Positions 43,917 to 55,362 of a stretch of DNA of 64,000 nt are shown one piece after another (the first letter of the stretch is position 1; every line of letters begins with the position of its first letter). Below the pieces are notes generated by a model. The model saw nothing but the letters and a program-made list of their open reading frames with translations, ran no database searches and had not been told where the DNA came from. The stretch is from Myxococcales bacterium. GTDB taxonomy: Bacteria > Myxococcota_A > Polyangia > Polyangiales > Polyangiaceae. The position numbers and the translations under genes were made by a program. The stretch lies in contig JACRDA010000497.1 in NCBI GenBank assembly GCA_016212965.1, positions 26,487 to 90,486 on the forward strand, given 5' to 3'.

Positions 43917-46900
43917 TCACCGGTCACCCCGACTCGGCTGGCTCGGCTCCGCGCCGGCGCCGCGACGACGCCGGCGCGCGAGCACGAGGCCGAGCGCCGA
44001 CAGAGCCGCCACGAGCGCCGCCTCGGAGTCCCGGTCGTCACCCGCGAGCACGCAGGCGCAGCCGCCTCCACCGGTCGCGAGCCGCCAGTCGCCCGCCGGT
44101 GCGTGGCCGTTGCCCGTGCCGCCCTGGCCCGTGCCGCCGTGGCTCGTGCCGCCCGTGGGCGGGCTGCCGCCGGCGCTCTGCCCGCCGCCGCCGGTCGGGG
44201 CCGAGCCTCCGGTGCCGCTGCCGCCGGCGCCGCCAGTGCCCTGATCCTCGCACAGGCCGTTCACGCAGGTCTGCCCCGACGGGCACACCGTGTTGGCGCA
44301 GCTGATCGGTACGCAGTGCCCGTCGTAGCATTGCTGTCCGGCCGGACACGGGAACTCGCCGGGCGAACAGGGCGCCACGCACTGGCCCCACAGGCAGATG
44401 TCGGAGGGCGAGGGGCAGTTGCCCGGGAGGTCGACGATGCCGTTGCAGTCGTTGTCCGCTCCGTCGCAGACCTCGAGCCCGGGCTTGACCGCACCGACGC
44501 AGTCGAACTGCCCGTTGACGCACACGAGCTGACCCGGCTGGCAAGGCGCCTGGTCGTAGGGCGACTGGGGCACGTCACACGGCTGGCCGACCTGCGGATC
44601 GTTCGGCGTGCAGCAGGTCGGATCGTCGAGGTGCTGGCAGGTCCCGCCGGGCCCGGTGCAGCTGTCGGTCGTGCACGGGTCGCCGTCGCTGCAGTCGGGG
44701 TCGACGTTGCAGCACCCGAGCGGCTTGAGGTCCACGAGCGTGCACGTGCCCGACAGGATCTCGCAGCCGTTCTGCGTGCAGAGATCGTCGGGGTTCTCCC
44801 GGCAGTCGGCGTCCACGGTGCAGCAGCCCGGGGTCGGGGTGTGCTGACACAGGTTGTTCGGCGGGCAGACGTCGACGCTGCAGCCGTTGCCGTCGTCGCA
44901 GTCGGCGTCGGTCTGGCAGCAGCCGCTGATCGGGGTCGACGTGCAGGTCCCGCCCGGCCCCGAGCACTGGTCGACGGTGCAGAACACGCCGTCGTCGCAG
45001 TTCGAGCTCGAGTTGCAGCAGTTCGGCACCGGCGCGTGGTTGCACGCGTTGATCGCGACGTTGCACGTGTCGGTGGTGCACAGGTCGGAATCGTTGCAGT
45101 CGGGATCCTGGGCGCAGCAGTCGAACACGGGCGCGTGCTGGCACTGGCCGCCGGGGGTCGGACACACGTCGGCCGTGCACGGGTTGCCGTCGTCGCAGTC
45201 GGTGTTCGAGATGCAGCAGCTCTGGTCGATGGGGTCGCACGGGCCGACGACCGTCACGTCGGACAGCACCGACGTGACCCAGCCCGGGCCCTTGAGGTTG
45301 GTGCGCACCTGCACGTAGCGGCCGGCGATGCCGGCGAGCGGCGCGCCGTTGACGGCCGGCGCGTACGCCGCCTGGCCCAGGGCCGCGAGCGTGTTGGCCG
45401 CGCGCACGTTGACGGTGAGCGAGGTCAGGGCCGGCACCGCGCCCTGCGGCTCGAGGTTCCAGCGGACCGTCGACCACGGGATGTCGTCTGCGCCGCCGTC
45501 GTAGCCCGAGGAGTCCCAGCTGCCGAGATAGGTGTACGGTGCCTGGCGATCGATCTGGACGCCGGTGAAGTCGCTGTAGAGGTAGGGCCCGTAGTTGTAC
45601 GCGTTCTGCCCCGGGGGCATCGGCACGGCGCCGCGATCGATGGGGTAGGCGGTGCGGCCGCAGTTCGCAGCGGTCTGGACCGGATCGAAGCGCACCAGGT
45701 GGTTGGGCCCGTCCTGCACCGACCAGATGAAGCCGTCGAAGTCGACCGACAGGCCGTGCGGGTTGGCGCCGCCCGTCGGGCAGGTGGCCTCGATGACATT
45801 GGTCGTCGGGTTGATGCGGTAGACGTTGTTGCTGCTGTACCCCGAGGCCCAGATCTTGCCGTTGAGGTCGTAGGTCACGGCCGTGACCTGGCTCGGCACG
45901 GAGACGCAGGTGCAGGTGGGTGGGCTGGCGTCGAAGTCGACCTTGTAGACGCCCGTGCCCGAGTAGCCGCCGGCCCACGCCTTGTGGGTGCCCGGGATGG
46001 CCACGAGGCCGTACACGCTGCCGCAGGTGCCGACGCCGCCGCCGCACGTGACCGAGTCGGCCTGGGCGATGTTGTTGATGTGGATGCGGATGATCTGCCC
46101 GGTGTTGCCAACGCCCGACCAGCCCGGGTTCGACGTGAGGTAGATGTAGTCGTCCGCCGTCGCCGCCGAGTAGAACCAGGCCGTGGTCGGCCAGCCGAAG
46201 GCGGGTGTGAAGACGCGCGACGTCTCGAGCGCGACCGGCTCGTTCGGGTTGAAGCGGTAAACGGTGTGGCCTTGCCAGTTCGCGACCCAGATCTTGCCCT
46301 CGCGATCGACCGCCACCGCGCGGGGAATGTCCCCGACCGCGCCGACGGGAATGGTCGTGAGGATGCACTCGTCGGCCTGCGCGTAGTACTCGACCTCGGC
46401 CGCGGGGGTGCCGAGGGCGGGAGTCTTGTACGGGTCGACGATGCCGTCGCCGTTGGCGTCGTGCGAGGTGTCGATGACGCCGTTGTTGTTGCGATCGATG
46501 CAGTGGGCGAGGTTGCCGGAGAACTTCGAGAGGCTGCCCTGCTTCGCGCCCTCGTAGTAGGCGCGGTTGGCGATCCACACGTCGCCGTTGGTGTCGACCG
46601 CGACGCGGCCCGGGTTGTTGCCCGACGTCGAGGCGCCCGTCGGCAGACCGTTGATGGAGGTGAGCACCGAGTCGAAGCGCGCGGTCTGCCGGCCGAGCGT
46701 GGGGCCGAGGGTCGTGTCGATGCGCACGAGCCAGCCGGGGCTGAGCGGCGTCGGCGCCGTGCCGCCCGGCGAGGTGTTGCTGACCCAGACGAGCCGGGTC
46801 TTCGAGACCGCCGTGCGGCCGAGCACGAGCTGGTCGTTGACGGGGGCGTGCCGGACGTTGTCGAGGATGCCGAGGTCGAAGTCGGCGTTGGTGGTGAACG

Positions 46901-46985
46901 TCCTTTGCTGTGCGGAGGCGGTCCCGTCGAGCAAGGCGGCCACGGCGAAGAAAGAGGCTCGGAGCCAAAGCTTGCAGGCGTTCAC
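43917..46985 (-). CDS. Secreted beta-propeller (NHL/SMP-30-like) protein with a CC..DC.DGN.CT.D.C repeat module, a MopE-like DNDC motif and a MYXO-CTERM-type sorting tail
   Basis: This is the real part of ORF 43917..48473(-). GTG at 46985 is preceded by GGAGGG with a 6-nt spacer, and gives MNACKLWLRASFFAVAALLDGTASAQQ (signal peptide). Propeller-like repeats include GRVAVDTNGDVWIAN, AVAVDREGKIWVANW, TYDLNGKIWASGY and LSVDFDGFIWSV. The Cys-rich module spans 44247-45242. The tail is GGGGCACVLAGDD...ALVAALSALGLVLARRRRRG. Confidence 0.7.
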   Translation of the reverse strand: MNACKLWLRASFFAVAALLDGTASAQQRTFTTNADFDLGILDNVRHAPVNDQLVLGRTAVSKTRLVWVSNTSPGGTAPTPLSPGWLVRIDTTLGPTLGRQTARFDSVLTSINGLPTGASTSGNNPGRVAVDTNGDVWIANRAYYEGAKQGSLSKFSGNLAHCIDRNNNGVIDTSHDANGDGIVDPYKTPALGTPAAEVEYYAQADECILTTIPVGAVGDIPRAVAVDREGKIWVANWQGHTVYRFNPNEPVALETSRVFTPAFGWPTTAWFYSAATADDYIYLTSNPGWSGVGNTGQIIRIHINNIAQADSVTCGGGVGTCGSVYGLVAIPGTHKAWAGGYSGTGVYKVDFDASPPTCTCVSVPSQVTAVTYDLNGKIWASGYSSNNVYRINPTTNVIEATCPTGGANPHGLSVDFDGFIWSVQDGPNHLVRFDPVQTAANCGRTAYPIDRGAVPMPPGQNAYNYGPYLYSDFTGVQIDRQAPYTYLGSWDSSGYDGGADDIPWSTVRWNLEPQGAVPALTSLTVNVRAANTLAALGQAAYAPAVNGAPLAGIAGRYVQVRTNLKGPGWVTSVLSDVTVVGPCDPIDQSCCISNTDCDDGNPCTADVCPTPGGQCQHAPVFDCCAQDPDCNDSDLCTTDTCNVAINACNHAPVPNCCNSSSNCDDGVFCTVDQCSGPGGTCTSTPISGCCQTDADCDDGNGCSVDVCPPNNLCQHTPTPGCCTVDADCRENPDDLCTQNGCEILSGTCTLVDLKPLGCCNVDPDCSDGDPCTTDSCTGPGGTCQHLDDPTCCTPNDPQVGQPCDVPQSPYDQAPCQPGQLVCVNGQFDCVGAVKPGLEVCDGADNDCNGIVDLPGNCPSPSDICLWGQCVAPCSPGEFPCPAGQQCYDGHCVPISCANTVCPSGQTCVNGLCEDQGTGGAGGSGTGGSAPTGGGGQSAGGSPPTGGTSHGGTGQGGTGNGHAPAGDWRLATGGGGCACVLAGDDRDSEAALVAALSALGLVLARRRRRGAGAEPSQPSRGDR

Positions 46986-47099
46986 GGGAAGCCCTCCAGT
47001 CTCCGTCAGAGTAGGGGAGCTTGACGCAGGCCACAAGGCTGGCGGACGCTCGCGACCCGCCCGACCCGCTCCTCGCGCTCCACGCCCCCGCCTCGTCGC

Positions 47100-48182
47100 A
47101 TGCGTCGCAAGAGCAAGACCCAGCTCGTGTTCCCGGCCCTCGGCGCGGCCGGGCTCGCCCTCCTCGTCCTCGCGCTCTTCCTCGTCGTTCCGGGCCGGGG
47201 AGCCCGCGGGCGCGAGGTCCGCGTCCTCACCGACCGCACCGAGTCGCACCTGGCTCCGCTCTTCCTCGCCTTCGAGCACGCCACGGGCATCACCGTCCGG
47301 GCGGTCTACCTCGAAAAGGGGCTCCTTGCCCGGCTCGAGAGTCGACCCGACGAGGCGGACGTCGTCATCACCAAGGACGCCGATCTGCTCGAGATCGCCA
47401 GGCACAAGGGGCTGCTCCAGCCGCTGTCCTCCGCCGCGATCGAGGAGGCCGTGCCCGAGCGCTTTCGCGAGCCCTCGGGCGCCTATTTCTCGGACTCCTA
47501 CCGTGCGCGGGTCATCTTCTACGCGCGGGATCGAGTCGCGCCCGAGGAGCTGTCGACCTACGAGGCGCTCGCCGAGCCGAAGTGGAAGGGCCGCGTCTGC
47601 ATCCGGTCGGGCTACCACGACTACAACCTGAGCCTCTTCGGCCAGATGATGAGCGTGATCGGGCCCGAGCGGACGCGCGCCTTTCTCGAGGGGCTGCGGG
47701 CGAACCTCGCCCGTACGCCGGGCGGTGACGACCGCGGTCAGGTGCGCGCCATCTACGAGCGCAAGTGCGACGTGGCCATCGCCAATTCCTACTACATGGG
47801 GATCATGCTCTCGTCGGCCGAGCAGCGGCCGTGGGGGCTCGCGTCGGCCGTGTTCTTCCCCGACCAGAGCGAGGGCGGCAGCTTCATCCTGCGCAGTGGG
47901 CTCGCGCTGACCCGTGCCGGCGACAACGTCGCAGCGGCCACGCGGCTGCTCGAGCACCTGGTGTTGCCGGAGACGCAGGACCTGATGGCCAACCTGACCT
48001 TCGCCTATCCCGTGGCCGGACGGGCCACGTTGAACGAGGTCAACCAGGAGCTCGGAGCGGGCCAGCCGGGGATCGAGCGCGGTGCGTTCGAGGTGCACAG
48101 CGTGCCGCTCGCCGATATCGTGCGAAACCGGGAGGCGGTGCTCCGCATGCTCGATGCGATTGAGTTCGACCAGCCGCGCTGA
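47100..48182 (+). CDS. fbpA: Fe(3+) ABC transporter substrate-binding protein (FbpA/HitA/AfuA family)
   Basis: ORF 47100..48182 with a signal/anchor (LVFPALGAAGLALLVLALFLVV). It closely resembles Haemophilus/Neisseria FbpA as I recall it: KGRVCIRSGYHDYNLSLFGQMM, EGLRANLARTPGGDDRGQVRAI, and ANSYYMG carrying the two iron-liganding Tyr. Confidence 0.85.
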   Translation: MRRKSKTQLVFPALGAAGLALLVLALFLVVPGRGARGREVRVLTDRTESHLAPLFLAFEHATGITVRAVYLEKGLLARLESRPDEADVVITKDADLLEIARHKGLLQPLSSAAIEEAVPERFREPSGAYFSDSYRARVIFYARDRVAPEELSTYEALAEPKWKGRVCIRSGYHDYNLSLFGQMMSVIGPERTRAFLEGLRANLARTPGGDDRGQVRAIYERKCDVAIANSYYMGIMLSSAEQRPWGLASAVFFPDQSEGGSFILRSGLALTRAGDNVAAATRLLEHLVLPETQDLMANLTFAYPVAGRATLNEVNQELGAGQPGIERGAFEVHSVPLADIVRNREAVLRMLDAIEFDQPR

Positions 48183-49725
48183 GCGGGCGGCGCGCGCCGC
48201 GCCCCTCGTGCTCGTCCTCGCCGTCGTCGCGCTCCCGGTGGTGACGCTGCTCGCGGTCGCGTTCGCGCACGCGACCCCGGCCTCGGCGGAGCTCCTCGGC
48301 CACCTGCTCGGCACGGTCGTCCCCGCGCAGACGGCACAGGGGCTCCTCGCCGCGGGCGGCGCGGCGCTCCTCGGGGCCGCGCTCGCGGCGGGTGGGCTCG
48401 CGGCCGCGCTTTTCGACTTTCCCGGCCGCGCCGTGCTCGAGCGCGCGCTCCTCGTGCCCCTGTTGCTCCCCACGTGGTTCGTCGCGGTCGTCCATCGCGA
48501 GGTCCTCGGCGCGCGGGGCGTCGGGTGGCTCGGCTTGTGCCTCGGTGTCGGAGCGGCGCCGCTGTTCCACCTGCTCGGCAGCGCGGCGCTCCGCGCGCTC
48601 CCCGGCGCCTACGTCGAGGTCCTGCGGCTCGCCGGACGCGCGCGCGGGCTCGCCGTCGCGCGCCACCTCGTGCCGCTCGCTCTTCCGGCGCTCGGCGCGG
48701 CGGCCGCGCTCGCCGCGCTCACCGGCTGGGCCGATGCGCCGACGGCCCGTGTCCTCGCCGTTCCCACGCTGGCCGTGGGCATGCTCGATCAGTGGTCCGC
48801 CCGCGAGGACGCCTCCGCCGGGGCGCTGCTCGGCCTCGGGGTCGCCTCCGTCAGCATGCTCGGGGCCTGGGCGCTGCTCCACGCGCTCGGGCGCATCCGC
48901 TGGCAGGACGACGCGCGGCTCGGGGCGTCGCGCGCACGGCGCGTCCGCCTCCGGGGGATCTCGGCAGCGGTCCCGTGGTTGCTCGCCGCCCCCCAGCTCG
49001 TGCTCGGGCTGGTTCTGCCGTGGGCAGCCATCGCCGGCTGGGCGGCGGAGCGGTTCGAGCGCGCGACGCTCGCCACGCTCGGCGGCGACGCTGCCCGCAC
49101 GCTCCTCTGCGCCGCCGCCGGCACGCTGCTCGCCGCCGCCCTGGCGCTGCCGATCCTCCACGCCCGGGCCTTCGCGCCCGCGGGCCGCCTCGGCAGGGCC
49201 GCCGCGGCGCTCGCGCTCGTGCCGTTCGCGCTCCCCGCCGCGGTGCTCGCCGCCGCCGTCCTGTGGATGTCTCCGAGCGGTGCCCGCTCGGGCCCCGCCG
49301 CGGCGTTCAACGCCACGCTCCTGCCCCTCGTGATGGCGCTCGGCGTGCATCTCTGCGCGGTCTTCGTCGCGGCCGGCCTGGCTGGCCTCCGGCGTCAGGG
49401 GCGCGAGCACGTGGCGTTGCTCCTGCTCCTCGGGCACACTCGGGTGAGGTCGCTCGGCCTGCTCCGGCCGTTTCTGTCGCGCCCCGTCGCGGCGGCGGCG
49501 GCCTTCGTGTTCCTCGAGTGCATCAAGGACGTGCAGCTCACGACCGTGCTCTCGCCCTTCGGCTTCTCCTCGATCTCGGCTCGCGTGCTCGAGCTCGCCC
49601 AGACGGAGCGCATGCGCGACTGCGCGGTCTGGATGCTGGGCCTCGGCCTCATCGGGCTCTACCCGCTCATGACGCTCGCGCGCACCGCGCGCGACCCCGA
49701 GGAGCCCGAGACCGAGCCATGCTGA
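48154..49725 (+). CDS. fbpB: Fe(3+) ABC transporter permease (two-domain FbpB-type)
   Basis: Part of ORF 48082..49725. ATG at 48154 overlaps the end of fbpA by 29 nt; an alternative TTG lies at 48160. It is about 12 TM, Ala/Leu-rich, with a duplicated permease architecture. Confidence 0.75.
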   Translation: MRLSSTSRAERAARAAPLVLVLAVVALPVVTLLAVAFAHATPASAELLGHLLGTVVPAQTAQGLLAAGGAALLGAALAAGGLAAALFDFPGRAVLERALLVPLLLPTWFVAVVHREVLGARGVGWLGLCLGVGAAPLFHLLGSAALRALPGAYVEVLRLAGRARGLAVARHLVPLALPALGAAAALAALTGWADAPTARVLAVPTLAVGMLDQWSAREDASAGALLGLGVASVSMLGAWALLHALGRIRWQDDARLGASRARRVRLRGISAAVPWLLAAPQLVLGLVLPWAAIAGWAAERFERATLATLGGDAARTLLCAAAGTLLAAALALPILHARAFAPAGRLGRAAAALALVPFALPAAVLAAAVLWMSPSGARSGPAAAFNATLLPLVMALGVHLCAVFVAAGLAGLRRQGREHVALLLLLGHTRVRSLGLLRPFLSRPVAAAAAFVFLECIKDVQLTTVLSPFGFSSISARVLELAQTERMRDCAVWMLGLGLIGLYPLMTLARTARDPEEPETEPC

Positions 49726-50732
49726 CCGTCGACGATCTCCGGATCCGGCTCGGCACGGGCTTCGCGCTCGACGGCGTCTCCTTCGCCGTCGCGCCGGGCG
49801 AGATCTTCGCCGTCCTCGGCCCGAACGGCAGCGGCAAGTCGACCCTGCTGCGGCTCCTCGCCGGGCTCGTGGCTCCGGCGGGCGGATCGATCGCGTGGTG
49901 CGGGGCGAAGCTCTCCGAGGGGCGGCGCGTGCTCGTGCCCCCCGCGCGGCGCGGGGTCGGCCTGCTGCTGCAGGAGGGCGTGCTCTTTCCGCACCTCGGG
50001 GTGCGCGCGAACGTGGCGCTCGGGCTCGGACCCGGGCGCTCGGACGACGAGACCGAGCGCCGGGTGTCCGAGGCGCTCGCCACGGCCCGGATCGGCCACC
50101 TCGGTGCGGCGCGGGTCGCGCGCTTGAGCGGCGGCGAGGCCCAGCGCGTGGCCCTCGCGCGCGCGCTGGTGCAGAGTCCTACCGTGATGCTCCTCGACGA
50201 GCCGTTCCACAGTCTCGACACCGAGGTGAAGACCGCCATCATGCGCGAGATCCGGGCCCTCGTGGCGGACCGGCGCCTCGCGGCCGTGCTCGTCACCCAC
50301 GACGCCGACGAGGCGAGCGCGCTCGCCGACCGGGTCCTGCTCCTCTGCGCCGGGCGCAAGATCCAGGAGGGTACGCTCGACGAGCTCTACCGCGCCCCCG
50401 CCGACGCCTGGGTCGCGCGCTTCCTCGGCGAGGTCGAGTCGGTCGACGCCGCGACGGCTGCCGCGGCGGGCATCGCCCTGCCGGAGCACGCCGGCGGCAC
50501 GCTCTCGTTCCGGCCCGACGCCCTCTTGCTCGAGCGCTCGGATGGCGAGGGCGGCCTCGAGGTGACCGCCGTGCGCCGGTGCCGGCAAGTCACCGAGGTG
50601 AGCGTGGCCTTGCCCGGCGGCCGAGTCCTCGTCGGCCGGTGCGCGGCGGAGCCGTTGCCGACGGTCGGCGAGCGCGCCCGCGCGCGCCTCGCGTGGCTCT
50701 TGCCGCCGAGCGCGGAGCAGGACGCCGCATGA
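49719..50732 (+). CDS. fbpC: ABC transporter ATP-binding protein (FbpC-type, with C-terminal regulatory/TOBE-like domain)
   Basis: In frame with the tail of ORF 48474..50732. ATG at 49719 overlaps the permease stop (ATGCTGA). Motifs are Walker A GPNGSGKST, signature LSGGEAQRV, Walker B MLLDEPF and the H-loop THD. Confidence 0.85.
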   Translation: MLTVDDLRIRLGTGFALDGVSFAVAPGEIFAVLGPNGSGKSTLLRLLAGLVAPAGGSIAWCGAKLSEGRRVLVPPARRGVGLLLQEGVLFPHLGVRANVALGLGPGRSDDETERRVSEALATARIGHLGAARVARLSGGEAQRVALARALVQSPTVMLLDEPFHSLDTEVKTAIMREIRALVADRRLAAVLVTHDADEASALADRVLLLCAGRKIQEGTLDELYRAPADAWVARFLGEVESVDAATAAAAGIALPEHAGGTLSFRPDALLLERSDGEGGLEVTAVRRCRQVTEVSVALPGGRVLVGRCAAEPLPTVGERARARLAWLLPPSAEQDAA

Positions 50733-51052
50733 GGATCCTGCGCATTCGCCGCGGTTTCACGACCAACTCGTCCGGCGCCAACGAGTTCCTCCCCGACGGC
50801 GGCGTCGTCATCTACGACGGCGGCACGCCCCGCGACGGCGGGACGCTGCCGGGCCCCAGCCCCGCGCCGGTGCTCACCGGCGTGCGGCCGTGGGAGCCCG
50901 AGCCCCCGCCCCCCGCGGGCTGCACGCCGTCGAGCAACGCGACGGCCCTCGGCGTGGTCTCGCTCGTGGTCGCCGGCGCGTTTCTCGTGGTCCCGGTGGT
51001 ACGCCTGCTGCGGCGCCGCAAGCGCAAGGAGCGGCACGACGATGAGACCTGA
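50729..51052 (+). CDS. Small protein (107 aa) with a Pro-rich middle, a single Cys in a GCTPSS motif, a C-terminal TM helix and a poly-basic tail
   Basis: In frame with the tail of ORF 49895..51052. ATG at 50729 overlaps the fbpC stop (ATGA). Nearly every third codon position is G/C. The sequence is MRILRIRRGFTTNSSGANEFLPDGGVVIYDGGTPRDGGTLPGPSPAPVLTGVRPWEPEPPPPAGCTPSSNATALGVVSLVVAGAFLVVPVVRLLRRRKRKERHDDET. There is no N-terminal signal peptide. Confidence 0.55.
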   Translation: MRILRIRRGFTTNSSGANEFLPDGGVVIYDGGTPRDGGTLPGPSPAPVLTGVRPWEPEPPPPAGCTPSSNATALGVVSLVVAGAFLVVPVVRLLRRRKRKERHDDET

Positions 51053-52326: not shown

Positions 52327-53214
52327 TCAGCGCTTCTCGAGCTTGCCGTCGGCGCCGAGCCCGAAGCGCTCGTCCACGTCCGCGCCGGAGAGCTCCCGGT
52401 TGGAGATCCGGTCCCGCACCGAGCGGCGCCCCGTGACGCGCAGGCCGTCGGCGAGGATCTCGAGCCGGCCGAGGAAGTAGACGACCCCGTTCGGGTCGCG
52501 GGCGTCCGTCTCCGACAGGGAGATCTCGCCGACGCGCTCGAGCGGCGGCGCGAGGCGCATCACGACGAGGCTCTCGCCCGTCCACTGCCGGCTCCGGATC
52601 CAGTGGCTCCAGGCGAGCACGATGGGGCGCTCGTCGAGGGCGACGACCCGGACCTCGGAGAGCGCGGGGACGGTCGAGCCGTGGACGACGCCCGCCTCGA
52701 GCTCGGCGATCGGACAGTCGGGCTGCCAGCAAGGCACGTAGGCGAGCAGCGTGCTCTCCGTGGCGACCGTGCGGCGCAAGCGGTCGGCGCACTCCGAGGC
52801 GGAGACGGAGCGACCGAGGGCCATGCGCGGGCAGAGCCACGCGGCCGTGGGCACGTCGGCCTCGAGGAAGTCCGCGTCGAAGGCGAAGCGCGGCGCGTCC
52901 GTCGCCGTGCGGACGAGCTCGACGAGCCCGGTGCGCTGCTCGATCCGCCCCTCGAACTGGCCCGCCCACGCGAGCTCGGGCCGGCGGGCGCGGACGAAGT
53001 ACGCCTCGCCCCACGTGACGGCGCGGTCGGCGTTCGCGCGCGGGAGGGGCTCGGAGAGCGCCGGCGCGGAGGCCACCCTGGTCACGAGGAGCTTCTCGGT
53101 GGCGACGCCCTCGCGCTCCGGCCGCTCGCTCCGGCAAGCGCCGGCCGAGAGCGCCGTCGAGCCGAGCGCGAGGCCGAGCGCGAGGCGCGAGATCGCCCGG
53201 TCGAGGCGGAGCAC
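52327..53214 (-). CDS. Hypothetical lipoprotein
   Basis: Part of ORF 52327..53394(-). GTG at 53214 gives MLRLDRAISRLALGLALGSTALSAGAC (lipobox). Upstream of that the translation is Ser/Thr/Arg-rich and junk-like. The start is uncertain because there is no clear RBS. Confidence 0.5.
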   Translation of the reverse strand: MLRLDRAISRLALGLALGSTALSAGACRSERPEREGVATEKLLVTRVASAPALSEPLPRANADRAVTWGEAYFVRARRPELAWAGQFEGRIEQRTGLVELVRTATDAPRFAFDADFLEADVPTAAWLCPRMALGRSVSASECADRLRRTVATESTLLAYVPCWQPDCPIAELEAGVVHGSTVPALSEVRVVALDERPIVLAWSHWIRSRQWTGESLVVMRLAPPLERVGEISLSETDARDPNGVVYFLGRLEILADGLRVTGRRSVRDRISNRELSGADVDERFGLGADGKLEKR

Positions 53215-53263
53215 GCCGGCATCTTGCAGCGCTCGGGTCGCGGGCTCAAGCGGCGCAGGGGAG

Positions 53264-54070
53264 TCAGTCGCAGCGCGCGGCCCAGCCGACCGCGTTGGCC
53301 ACGAGCCGCTGGAGGTCGATGTTGGTCCAGCCGTGAGCCACGTGGTTGCCCGCGTGCGCGAGGTGCACGACCCGGCCGGCCGGCGGCAGGTCACGGATGG
53401 CCACCACGTCCTGCGCCTGGGGGCTCCGGGCGATGCGGGCCACGCCCGGCGCCGGGCGGATCGCGCCGACGTTCGAGGTCGACGTGAAGGAGAAGGATGC
53501 CGGCAGGCCGGCCCAGAGAGGGTGCGAGGCGAACGCCGGCTCGACCTCGTAGGTCACCTGTCCGCTGTGACCACCCGTCCGGCCGAGCAGCACCAGCGGC
53601 GCGAGGGTCTGCCACCGCGGCGTGCCTTCGGCAGCGACGTGGAACGCGGCCCACTCCGTGAGGACGAGCCCGTGCCCCGCCGCGACGAAGTCGACGATCG
53701 CCTGCTGTCCCTCGAGGGGCATGTCGGGGTGCGGCGTGCGCGCCTGGCCTCCCGAGAGCACCACCACGGCGTCGGGCGCGAGCTCGCCCGCGAGCGCCGG
53801 ACTGCCGGCGTACGCGCTCGCGGCGACGTCCGAGGTGGTCACGCGGAAGCCCGCGGCGGTGAGCGCGACCGCGAGCGGCGCTGCGCCGCCCGGTACCTCG
53901 TCGACGAGGATGAGCACCTTCTTCGGGCAGCCGGCCGCGGTGCCGGCGGCAGGCTCGGCGGCGCCGCCGTCACAGGCTGCGATGGTGGCGGTGAGCGCAG
54001 CGAGCAACCCGAGCCGGGCGGTCGTCGGAGCCGAGCGCCTCACGCCTCGCACGGTGGAGGACTCTAGCAC
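53264..54070 (-). CDS. ThuA-like domain lipoprotein; stand-alone paralogue of the C-terminal domain of 41683..43884
   Basis: ORF 53264..54070(-). Lipobox is LLAALTATIAAC. It is collinear with the 41686-42327 domain at the protein level (VLTEWAAFH, HPLWAGLPASFSFTSTSNVG, GRVVHLAHAGNH, LQRLVANAVGWAARC). The similarity is also visible at the nucleotide level (53267-53380 vs 41691-41800). Confidence 0.7.
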   Translation of the reverse strand: MLESSTVRGVRRSAPTTARLGLLAALTATIAACDGGAAEPAAGTAAGCPKKVLILVDEVPGGAAPLAVALTAAGFRVTTSDVAASAYAGSPALAGELAPDAVVVLSGGQARTPHPDMPLEGQQAIVDFVAAGHGLVLTEWAAFHVAAEGTPRWQTLAPLVLLGRTGGHSGQVTYEVEPAFASHPLWAGLPASFSFTSTSNVGAIRPAPGVARIARSPQAQDVVAIRDLPPAGRVVHLAHAGNHVAHGWTNIDLQRLVANAVGWAARCD

Positions 54071-54484
54071 GCGGCGCGGAGCCGCCGCTCACGGCGCCAC
54101 GGTCCGGATCTGGCCCTGGGTCGCGAAGTACGCGCGCTCGGCCCAGACGAGATGGGCGCCGTCGACCGCCAACCCCGCGACGAACGACTGATTCGTCGCG
54201 AGCGGGACGCTGGTCCCGCCGCCGACCGGAACGCGCAGCACCTTGGAGAGCTTCAAGAACTCGTGCCCCGAGACCTCGGACCCACCCCGAGCTACGGCCG
54301 CTTCGACGCGTCGTCCGGGGGCGATACGTCGGTCCCCGCACGAGCGATCGGCCCCATGCTAGGCCACCGGAGGCGCAAGGTTCTCGGCAAATCTGCTCCC
54401 CCGTCCTGGCCCAGACTGGCACGGGTGACCTTAGGGAATATAAGTAATGGCAATGATTCCGAATTGTTGGACTCTTGCCGGCTG

Positions 54485-54501
54485 TGGCATGCGGCCTGCT
54501 T
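54485..54501 (+). promoter_or_regulatory. Candidate sigma-54 (-24/-12) promoter upstream of the Gly-rich lipoprotein pair
   Basis: The site is TGGCAT-gcggc-CTGCTT. GG at 54486-87 and GC at 54498-99 are separated by exactly 10 nt, against the consensus TGGCAC-N5-TTGCW. It lies ~45 nt upstream of ATG 54545 and just downstream of an unusually AT-rich patch. Confidence 0.3.
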
Positions 54502-54544
54502 ATCTCGCTGGGAGCTGCTACCTCTGCCACCCAGGACGCACGCC

Positions 54545-54967
54545 ATGACCCTCCGCCAATCGAAGCCGCGCCCCCGTACCGCGATCACCGCCCCGAGCTA
54601 TCCCCGCGCGCTCGGGCTGGTCGCGCTCGGCATGTTGACCGCGTGTGCCGGAACGGTGCAGGTCGAGGGCGAGACGACCGCGTCCGACCCGATCGTGACG
54701 GGCAGCGGCGGTAGCGGCGCGGGCGGCTACGGCGTGGGCGGTGGGCTCGACGGCGGTATGCCCGAGCCCTTCGGCGGCTCCGGCGGAGCCGGCGCGACCG
54801 CGGGAGCGGGCGGCGCGGGCGCGAGCGCCGGGGCGGGCGGCGTCGGCGCGGGTGGCTACGGCGACGGCGGCTACGGCTACGGCGGTGGCCTCGACGGTGG
54901 CATCGGCGAGTCTTTCGGCGGAGCCGGCGGCGCGGGTGCGGCGGGTGGAGCCGGAGGCGCGCCATGA
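54545..54967 (+). CDS. Gly-rich lipoprotein (copy 1 of a tandem pair)
   Basis: This is the real part of ORF 54152..54967, starting at ATG 54545. It begins MTLRQSKPRPRTAITAPSYPRALGLVALGMLTAC (lipobox), followed by TVQVEGETT and G/A-rich tracts containing two (E)PFGG(S/A)GGAG motifs. Confidence 0.6.
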   Translation: MTLRQSKPRPRTAITAPSYPRALGLVALGMLTACAGTVQVEGETTASDPIVTGSGGSGAGGYGVGGGLDGGMPEPFGGSGGAGATAGAGGAGASAGAGGVGAGGYGDGGYGYGGGLDGGIGESFGGAGGAGAAGGAGGAP

Positions 54968-55362
54968 CCCTGCGCCAGGCGAAGCCGCGGCCGCGGACCG
55001 AGATCGTCGTTCCGCGCTATCCCCGCGCCCTCGGGCTGGTGGCGCTCGGCATGCTGACCGCGTGCGCCGCGACGGTGCAGGTCGAGGGCGAGACCACGAG
55101 CTCGACCGACACGGGCACCGGCGCGAGCGGTCCCGCGGGGGGCATCGCCGAGCCGTTCGGCGGCTCCGGCGGCGGCGGCGCGAGCGCGACCGCGGGAGCG
55201 GGAGGTGCGGGTGCGGGTGGCGCGGGCGCGAGCGCCGGAGCGGGCGGCGTCGGCACGGGTGGCTACGGCTACGGTGGCGGGCCCGACGGCGACATCGGCG
55301 AGCCCTTCGGCGGAGCGGGCGGAGCGGGCGCGAGCGGCGGAGCGGGCGGCGCCGCGCCGTGA
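54964..55362 (+). CDS. Gly-rich lipoprotein (copy 2 of a tandem pair)
   Basis: ORF 54964..55362. The ATG overlaps the stop of copy 1 (ATGA). It begins MTLRQAKPRPRTEIVVPRYPRALGLVALGMLTAC, and its first ~130 nt are visibly very similar to copy 1. Confidence 0.6.
   Translation: MTLRQAKPRPRTEIVVPRYPRALGLVALGMLTACAATVQVEGETTSSTDTGTGASGPAGGIAEPFGGSGGGGASATAGAGGAGAGGAGASAGAGGVGTGGYGYGGGPDGDIGEPFGGAGGAGASGGAGGAAP

Follow-up and report, generated by a model that had tools for sequence, protein, structure and literature searches.

A widespread family of small membrane proteins encoded next to a radical-SAM/SPASM enzyme and a predicted ferric-iron importer: a candidate peptide maturation pair

The stretch analyzed here, 64,000 nucleotides (nt) of contig JACRDA010000497.1 from a Myxococcales bacterium of the Polyangiaceae (hereafter, the window), carries on its forward strand a gene for a 107-amino-acid (aa) protein, set between the genes of an ATP-binding cassette (ABC) importer and a gene for a radical S-adenosylmethionine (rSAM) enzyme with a SPASM domain (Table 1). 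The ATG of the small gene overlaps the stop codon of the upstream ABC ATPase gene (ATGA), while at its other end it shares 11 nt with the start of the gene encoding the Radical_SAM and SPASM domains. An earlier note, made from the DNA letters of this region, had drawn attention to the length of the small protein, its sole cysteine within GCTPSS, a hydrophobic helix of 19 residues, a tail of Arg and Lys, and the rSAM/SPASM gene downstream, all of which we found in the sequence. The translation, MRILRIRRGFTTNSSGANEFLPDGGVVIYDGGTPRDGGTLPGPSPAPVLTGVRPWEPEPPPPAGCTPSSNATALGVVSLVVAGAFLVVPVVRLLRRRKRKERHDDET, matched no Pfam or NCBIfam family model, also when matches up to E ≤ 10 were considered. A word-indexed search returned 39 homologues, and an exhaustive profile search returned, at E ≤ 1e-3, 167 cluster representatives, of which 91 also had E ≤ 1e-10. 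Across 31 distinct DNA versions, entropy over the first 22 codons was 0.42 bits at codon position 1, 0.40 at position 2, and 1.26 at position 3; because it is concentrated at the third position, the amino-acid sequence is under selection, and the open reading frame (ORF) is a real, selected gene. The small protein belongs to a widespread family of single-pass membrane proteins that is unnamed in Pfam and NCBIfam and whose genes are usually placed last, with the rSAM gene, in a predicted ferric-iron uptake operon. Named carriers are Polyangiaceae, Haliangium, Halochromatium glycolicum, Sedimenticolaceae, Rhodobacterales, Silvanigrella, and an unclassified gammaproteobacterium, and the family occurs in Chromatiales as well.

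Members of the family share a three-part layout, in which an N-terminal linear motif of 22 residues is joined, through a low-complexity tether that varies among members, to a C-terminal helix accompanied by an Arg/Lys cluster. The consensus of the first part is M-[KR]-I-L-[RK]-x-[RHK]-[RK]-G9-[FY]10-T11-T12-N13-S14-S15-[GAS]-x-x-[ED]19-[WFY]20-[LVI]-P, in which G9, N13, and S15 are invariant across the family and T12 has a single exception. Residue 14 is Ser in 163 members, Cys in seven, and Phe in one, and residue 20, a Trp in most members, is Phe in the window protein. Conservation of the N-terminal RRGFTTNSSGANEF block had been proposed as a check in the earlier note, and this block proved to be the conserved element. 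The linker between motif and helix is rich in Pro/Ala/Ser/Thr and ranges from 13 to 130 residues. AlphaFold2 modeling of the small protein alone (94 sequences) gave one helix, at residues 70-103, with a predicted local distance difference test score (pLDDT) of ~95 at residues 71-100, and left residues 1-60 as low-confidence coil, the pLDDT of the N-terminal motif being 53-59. This lack of a fold of its own is as expected for a peptide ligand or substrate, and the N-terminal block is best modeled as a linear motif that needs a partner. The absence of a signal peptide, also suggested earlier, was borne out, in that residues 1-30, MRILRIRRGFTTNSSGANEFLPDGGVVIYD, have no hydrophobic core, and the same holds across the family. 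We considered a twin-arginine (Tat) signal peptide and rejected it, since R7-R8-G-F is present but is followed by the polar TTNSSGANEF, with no h-region. Separately, the invariant N-x-S at N13-S14-S15 (50765-50773) fits an N-glycosylation sequon, as does the N-C-S of the members with Cys at position 14, and no glycosyltransferase gene was seen in the cassette. Literature searches with the motif strings returned unrelated papers only.

Gene neighborhoods were scored by tblastn in 34 distinct loci drawn from metagenomes, metagenome-assembled genomes, and one isolate genome. The metagenome scan, which gave 21 loci, used the pattern RRG[FY]TTNSS and so captures too few of the variants that have Cys at position 14 (Cys14-type) or are of the HH type. 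An rSAM/SPASM gene lay directly downstream of the small gene in 29 of the 30 distinct loci with enough room. Of the 13 loci where we examined the junction, 12 had an overlap of 4-38 nt between the end of the small gene and the rSAM start, and one had a gap of 3 nt. The link between the small protein and the downstream enzyme, drawn in the earlier note from the window, therefore extends across the family. In 26 of 30 loci, the gene directly upstream of the small gene encoded an ABC ATPase; among the 15 loci with enough flank, 13 had all the importer genes, for binding protein, permease, and ATPase. Four of the 30 (L005, L015, and L019 among them) kept the small gene and the rSAM gene together without an adjacent transporter, which indicates that the two-gene pair is the core. 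The rSAM family itself reached records named Planctomycetota, Spirochaetales, and Oligoflexales at 45-50% full-length identity; these are sequence matches, the neighborhood pairing being known from other loci, which include, among distant members of the rSAM family, Halochromatium and two more.

The enzyme carries a full SPASM domain. None of the NCBIfam equivalogs came near its cut-off, the best being StsB, NirJ2, and PqqE with 70-78 bits against cut-offs of 380-625, and no model for anaerobic sulfatase-maturing enzymes (anSME) was among the 25 NCBIfam matches listed for it; no named rSAM system in NCBIfam includes the pair. In the AlphaFold2 model (pLDDT 91, predicted TM-score 0.91), the N-terminal domain consists of strands at residues 14-19, 22-27, and 32-36 and helices at 38-48 and 57-69, all with pLDDT >90. 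Foldseek searches of the PDB placed SuiB first (E 7e-20, TM-score 0.68, ~450 columns, N-terminal domain included), followed by SkfB and CteB, while PqqE and anSME were weaker matches to the core only (TM-score 0.55 for anSMEcpe). A profile of the N-terminal 98 residues had its best PDB match in SuiB residues 24-56, via R-x-E-x-F-G-G-I-L...E-L-D and with a weak E-value of 0.13, and the Pfam PqqD model did not match the enzyme. Within this region, R17, E19, G22, and D37 were invariant in the full alignment, as were G23 and F26 in the alignment of the N-terminal domain. The enzyme is thus predicted, with good support, to be built like a peptide maturase with a peptide-recognition domain, the latter resembling the recognition element (RRE) of enzymes that act on peptides made by ribosomes and modified after translation (RiPPs).

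Upstream of the pair, the binding protein matched Mannheimia FbpA (1q35) at E 1e-58 and the cyanobacterial FutA (2pt1) at 1e-51 among PDB sequences, and FutA, Bordetella, and Campylobacter iron-binding proteins were matched at 1e-39 to 1e-52. Its segments SGYHDYNLS and NSYYMG, which are kept in most of the cassette binding proteins, align with segments of 1q35 that we take to hold three iron-ligand tyrosines. By homology, from which alone the substrate is predicted, the genes at 47100-50732 appear to encode a ferric-iron importer of the FbpABC/FutABC type. An Rfam scan of the operon region gave no match, and no Fur box was obvious by eye in the 65 nt upstream of the binding-protein gene, a region for which no formal search was made.

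Table 1. Features of the small-protein cassette, with coordinates in the window.
Feature	Position	Strand	Basis
Small membrane protein gene, 107 aa	50729..51052	+	39 close homologues; no Pfam/NCBIfam family
N-terminal linear motif MRILRIRRGFTTNSSGANEFLP, residues 1-22; proposed rSAM recognition/modification site	50729..50794	+	Conservation, codon entropy
Variable Pro/Gly/Ala-rich tether, residues 23-71, including non-conserved Cys65	50795..50941	+	Linker length across the family
C-terminal module: transmembrane helix (residues 72-90), Arg/Lys cluster, short acidic tail	50942..51049	+	Hydropathy, hidden Markov model, AlphaFold2 helix
Radical-SAM/SPASM enzyme, 423 aa	51042..52313	+	Pfam Radical_SAM and SPASM
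RRE-like domain (predicted), residues 14-69, three strands and two helices	51081..51248	+	AlphaFold2 secondary structure; SuiB alignment
CxxxCxxC radical-SAM cluster motif, C112, C116, C119	51375..51398	+	Invariant in 63 homologues
SPASM domain, C338, C356, C398-x2-C401-x5-C407-x3-C411-x7-C419	52053..52298	+	All cysteines invariant in 63 homologues
Periplasmic substrate-binding protein, FbpA/FutA-type, N-terminal signal/anchor	47100..48182	+	Pfam SBP_bac_6/1/11; PDB sequence matches
Double-domain ABC permease, ~500-550 aa, start uncertain	48082..49725	+	Homologues with BPD_transp_1; syntenic by tblastn
ABC ATPase, 337 aa	49719..50732	+	Homologues with ABC_tran, in some loci TOBE_2

At the other end of the small protein, residues 72-90, ALGVVSLVVAGAFLVVPVV, are followed by RLLRRRKRKER and then HDDET. 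A 19-residue window with Kyte-Doolittle hydropathy >1.6 was present in 98% of family members, and the mean number of Lys and Arg per 15 residues was 5.8 after the helix versus 0.8 before it. Across the family, S/G-N often stands directly before the helix, and the basic cluster is usually succeeded by a stretch of 5-20 residues, most of them acidic. When a hidden Markov model (HMM) of the helix and basic cluster was run against the 2321 ORFs of at least 60 aa from the window and the loci, it matched the small proteins and the C-terminus of one other protein only, an exported protein related to the formylglycine-generating enzyme (FGE) in loci L021 and L022 (E 6e-10; next best match, E 2.9). A database search with the module profile, probably limited by the word index, yielded no further cargo proteins, its matches being four short fragments. 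Because the FGE-like protein has a signal peptide, its copy of the module should be oriented C-in with the preceding domain outside, in agreement with the positive-inside rule. For the anchor of the small protein, a C-in orientation is likewise predicted with good support; the tether and N-terminal motif would then face the periplasm, where the iron-binding protein (and, in the Cys14 subfamily, the FGE-like domain) would be their neighbor. Since the hydrophobic segment is at the extreme C-terminus, membrane insertion would be post-translational, leaving time for cytoplasmic modification before any translocation.

The interpretation that we favor, at somewhat better than even chances, is that the small protein is the dedicated partner, and most likely the peptide substrate, of the rSAM/SPASM enzyme encoded directly downstream, with its predicted RRE-like domain. 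In this scheme, the two genes, with their overlapping ends, would be translationally coupled, and the finished chain, whose sole hydrophobic segment is C-terminal, would first be free in the cytoplasm in the manner of tail-anchored proteins. The RRE-like domain of the enzyme would then bind the basic N-terminal stretch M-R/K-I-L-R-x-R-R, while the radical-SAM core and two SPASM clusters would modify the adjacent G-F/Y-T-T-N-S-S...E-W/F/Y segment (residues 9-20), Ser14 being the prime candidate for modification in view of the Ser/Cys alternation at that position. Finally, the product would be fixed in the inner membrane by its C-terminal helix, the basic cluster lying on the inside, and the modified head might, more speculatively, work with the FbpA-type importer in iron capture, hand-off, or regulation.

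Several observations weigh against this interpretation. The motif starts at Met1, so that any leader has at most ~8 residues, which is atypical for RiPPs, and no protease or exporter gene was present in the cassettes seen. There is also a topology paradox, in that a C-in/N-out anchor, as the basic cluster predicts, would make the motif periplasmic and so separate it from an enzyme in the cytoplasm, while a periplasmic motif is itself contradicted by the missing signal peptide, the three or four Lys/Arg at the N-terminus, and the cytoplasmic location of the presumed partner enzyme. On one low-GC metagenome contig (L028, 2392-2613), a 73-aa member stands alone, with no adjacent rSAM or ABC gene, the one exception to the pairing among the 30 loci. 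Moreover, the RRE assignment depends on the predicted fold and the weak profile match (E 0.13), the parallel between the Ser/Cys alternation and formylglycine formation is only an analogy, given that the FGE-like proteins lack the canonical Cys pair, and the iron link of the pair comes purely from gene neighborhood.

Of the alternatives, the one that fares best, although we regard it as unlikely, is that the small protein is a membrane tether or adaptor, whose motif binds the RRE-like domain without being modified. It would then recruit the enzyme to the inner membrane by the importer, or be an accessory or regulatory subunit of the importer itself, and the enzyme would act on an imported compound or another protein, or serve as an Fe-S-based iron sensor. 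Such a role draws on the same adjacency and conservation data, and the C-terminal helix, basic cluster, and acidic tail do look like an interaction module. The wide range of tether lengths (13-130 aa) and the ABC genes upstream in 26 of 30 loci are also in keeping with it. However, the enzyme has the architecture of a peptide-modifying maturase, and the invariant polar T12, N13, S14, and S15, together with the aromatic/acidic pair and the Ser/Cys switch, fit a reaction site better than they fit a docking strand; likewise, four of the 30 loci keep the pair with no ABC transporter adjacent. A fusion of the ABC ATPase and the small protein in one frame, found in a single database protein (P0160, 433 aa, from a metagenome), would also speak for a tether and, if real, would force the N-terminal motif to be cytoplasmic, but it is probably a read-through or sequencing error at the ATGA overlap.

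Extending the interpretation of the small protein as a substrate, we can also envisage, tentatively and as an unlikely case, that an rSAM-modified head-group on a flexible Pro/Ala-rich inner-membrane stalk is a component of the ferric importer, acting either as a tethered metallophore or iron hand-off group or as an iron-status switch, with residue 14 the transformed center.

We see little prospect for the idea that the helix and basic cluster form a new sorting signal of the CTERM type, cleaved by a dedicated membrane protease or transpeptidase such that the N-terminal part is released or re-anchored outside the cell membrane. The earlier note had remarked on a likeness to MYXO-CTERM and PEP-CTERM signals, of which the conserved succession of transmembrane helix and basic cluster holds up, whereas the identification with these known signals does not: no NCBIfam CTERM model matched at E ≤ 10, although the tail with which the note had compared it, at 43920-44129 on the reverse strand of the window, is a genuine MYXO-CTERM (TIGR03901, 24.6 bits versus a cut-off of 20). 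The small protein also lacks the signal peptide, and no sortase-like gene was present in the cassettes examined (the 64-kb window and short flanks). The layout of a short polar motif (often S/G-N), helix, and basic cluster would suit such a signal, as would the sequence specificity of the module and its recurrence on the exported FGE-like protein with a signal peptide (L021), but acidic residues usually follow the basic cluster, and the module occurs on just that one other protein type, to which the database search added none. The protein that ends in the genuine MYXO-CTERM is encoded at 43917-47034 on the reverse strand and is large, with Cys-rich repeats.

To the proposal with which the earlier note had begun, that the Cys of GCTPSS before the helix is the target of the enzyme, to be converted to formylglycine or cross-linked as a thioether, we attach next to no weight. 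This cysteine (residue 65, codon 50921-50923, within PPPPAGCTPSSNAT) fits, as CTPS, four of the five positions of the sulfatase motif CTPSR, lies upstream of an rSAM/SPASM enzyme, and has counterparts in a few relatives whose Cys precedes the helix by 7-8 residues (P0006, P0033, P0035, P0039, and P0161), yet neither the Cys nor the CTPS is conserved, an outcome that the note itself had named as one that would refute its reading. No Cys at all is present in 131 of 170 family members, a Cys within 15 residues before the helix occurs in eight of 173, and the block is variable among the closest relatives, with P0001, 75% identical in the alignment, reading PIEPSSNAAT at this site. The analogy with sulfatases fails as well, since Ser replaces Arg at +4, no sulfatase domain was found with Pfam or NCBIfam models, and the fold of the enzyme is nearest to SuiB, SkfB, and CteB, the RRE-bearing maturases (0.68), rather than to anSME (0.55). 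Judged by the homologues compared, the GCTPSS cysteine is a lineage-specific accident with no conserved role; the cysteine motif is irrelevant, and residues 9-20 are the part of interest.

Within that segment, residue 14 is the best candidate for a functional center, because it is the sole conserved position to alternate between Ser and Cys and because the Cys form comes with an extra exported protein. Specifically, seven cluster representatives read G-F-S-T-N-C-S-G, and both of the independent Cys14 loci with enough flank carry a gene for an exported protein with an FGE-sulfatase domain, whereas none was found at Ser14 loci. In L021 (8783-10063; also in L022), it encodes a 426-aa protein (PF03781, E 2e-39) with an N-terminal signal peptide and overlaps the preceding rSAM gene; in L045 (1359-2264; also in L046), an orthologous gene for a 301-aa lipoprotein-type FGE-like protein lies just upstream of the binding-protein gene. 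We rejected the possibility that these are true formylglycine-generating enzymes, in that neither has the canonical catalytic Cys pair after RGGSW, where they read ANKGKL and INEGQL; their resemblance is to the non-FGE branch (PvdO, GldK, EgtB-C). With two loci, residue 14 as a functional center is a lead and not a result. Beside both Cys14-type cassettes, on the opposite strand, we also observed a gene for a Flavodoxin_2/FMN_red protein of 456-492 aa (L021, 10199-11569; L045, 7918-9396), which could be a reductase partner or could reflect lineage synteny.

Among described systems, SuiA/SuiB and the related SkfB and CteB provide the closest parallels, namely a short ORF beside a three-domain enzyme with an RRE or, here, a predicted RRE-like domain, a radical-SAM barrel, and a C-terminal domain for auxiliary clusters, and they are also the best fold matches. 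They differ from the present pair in that enzyme identity to SuiB, SkfB, and CteB is 16-18%, with no NCBIfam equivalog passing its cut-off, and in that the motif here begins at Met1 instead of following a long leader, a C-terminal membrane anchor is present, and protease and exporter are missing. In addition, the cassette is part of an iron-import operon and is found across phyla, more like a housekeeping system than an antibiotic cluster.

A second parallel is offered by QhpC, the gamma subunit of quinohemoprotein amine dehydrogenase (QHNDH), and the rSAM enzyme QhpD. Like the small protein, QhpC is encoded in the same operon as its rSAM/SPASM enzyme and lacks a Sec signal; QhpC is moved to the periplasm after modification, its cross-linking by QhpD taking place in the cytoplasm before translocation (PMC7876137). 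In contrast, QhpC has a 28-residue leader that is cleaved, Cys-Asp/Glu thioethers, a protease (QhpE), and an efflux ABC transporter (QhpF), whereas the family here is mostly Cys-free, has no protease, and is associated with an ABC system that is a binding-protein-dependent importer. Bufferins, which are widespread in bacteria, are ribosomal peptide metallophores that are modified in the cytoplasm and act outside it in metal homeostasis (PMC11626156). They are, however, soluble, carry a Sec signal peptide, are modified on Cys by MNIO/DUF692 enzymes, and are concerned with copper, while the proteins described here have an rSAM/SPASM enzyme, mostly no Cys, a membrane anchor, no signal peptide, and neighbors for ferric-iron import, with metal binding only conjectured.

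The likeness to anSME and AtsB is in the SPASM class of the enzyme, and the Ser/Cys alternation at position 14 together with the FGE-domain protein echoes the maturation of Ser-type and Cys-type sulfatases. Nevertheless, the motif is T-N-(S/C)-S-(G/A/S)-x-x-E as opposed to (C/S)-x-(P/A)-x-R, a sulfatase domain is absent, anSME has no RRE and is the weaker fold match, and the FGE-like proteins here are exported and without the catalytic Cys pair. MYXO-CTERM and PEP-CTERM tails share with the family the order of short motif, transmembrane helix, and Arg-rich cluster, and the module is common to one exported protein; unlike those tails, the family has neither a conserved Cys nor a PEP signature, carries acidic residues after the basic cluster, and occurs beyond Myxococcota. 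By analogy, the system would resemble RRE-dependent rSAM/SPASM maturation pairs such as SuiA/SuiB and QhpC/QhpD, although with the anchor retained and with no long leader, protease, or exporter.

Pairs of rSAM/SPASM enzymes and small peptides have yielded new chemistry and cofactors, among them pyrroloquinoline quinone (PQQ), mycofactocin, streptide, and the cross-links of QHNDH. The pair described here is unusual in having the motif at the extreme N-terminus, in a peptide that stays anchored in the membrane, and in its setting in a ferric-iron uptake operon, and literature searches that paired SPASM or radical-SAM enzymes with iron ABC transport, with FbpA, or with precursors bearing a transmembrane segment at the C-terminus returned no description of such a system. 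Should the peptide turn out to be modified and to cooperate with the importer, FbpABC-type iron acquisition would have a component that has gone unrecognized, one that is also a modified membrane protein of a new kind. The tethered head-group, if true, would establish a new class of membrane proteins that bacteria modify after translation and use in acquiring iron, with conservation reaching from Myxococcota to Gammaproteobacteria.

Finally, we noted additional genes around the cassettes. In two loci (L001 and L003), the cassette is flanked by a gene for a 977-978-aa protein with the same weak Vgb_lyase Pfam match as the protein at 43917-47034 in the window, followed in each case by a gene for a 732-775-aa protein, and this shared flank suggests wider synteny in Polyangiaceae-type genomes. 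Directly after the rSAM gene of the window, and convergent with it, two reverse-strand genes encode a lipoprotein-like protein without a family (52327-53394) and a weakly ThuA-like protein (53264-54070); they are syntenic with the cassette only in myxobacterial-type loci (L001-L006 and L013) and lie outside the conserved core. Beyond them, two tandem paralogous ORFs on the forward strand (54152-54967 and 54964-55362) contain or begin with MTLRQ(S/A)KPRPRT; their signal resembles that of lipoproteins (GMLTACA), and their C-terminal halves are rich in Gly and of low complexity. In Halochromatium glycolicum (L009, 8397-14813), an ebo-type cluster (EboA, UbiA, TatD, AP_endonuc_2, and Phosphodiest) occupies the opposite strand immediately downstream of the cassette, a placement that is probably coincidental.

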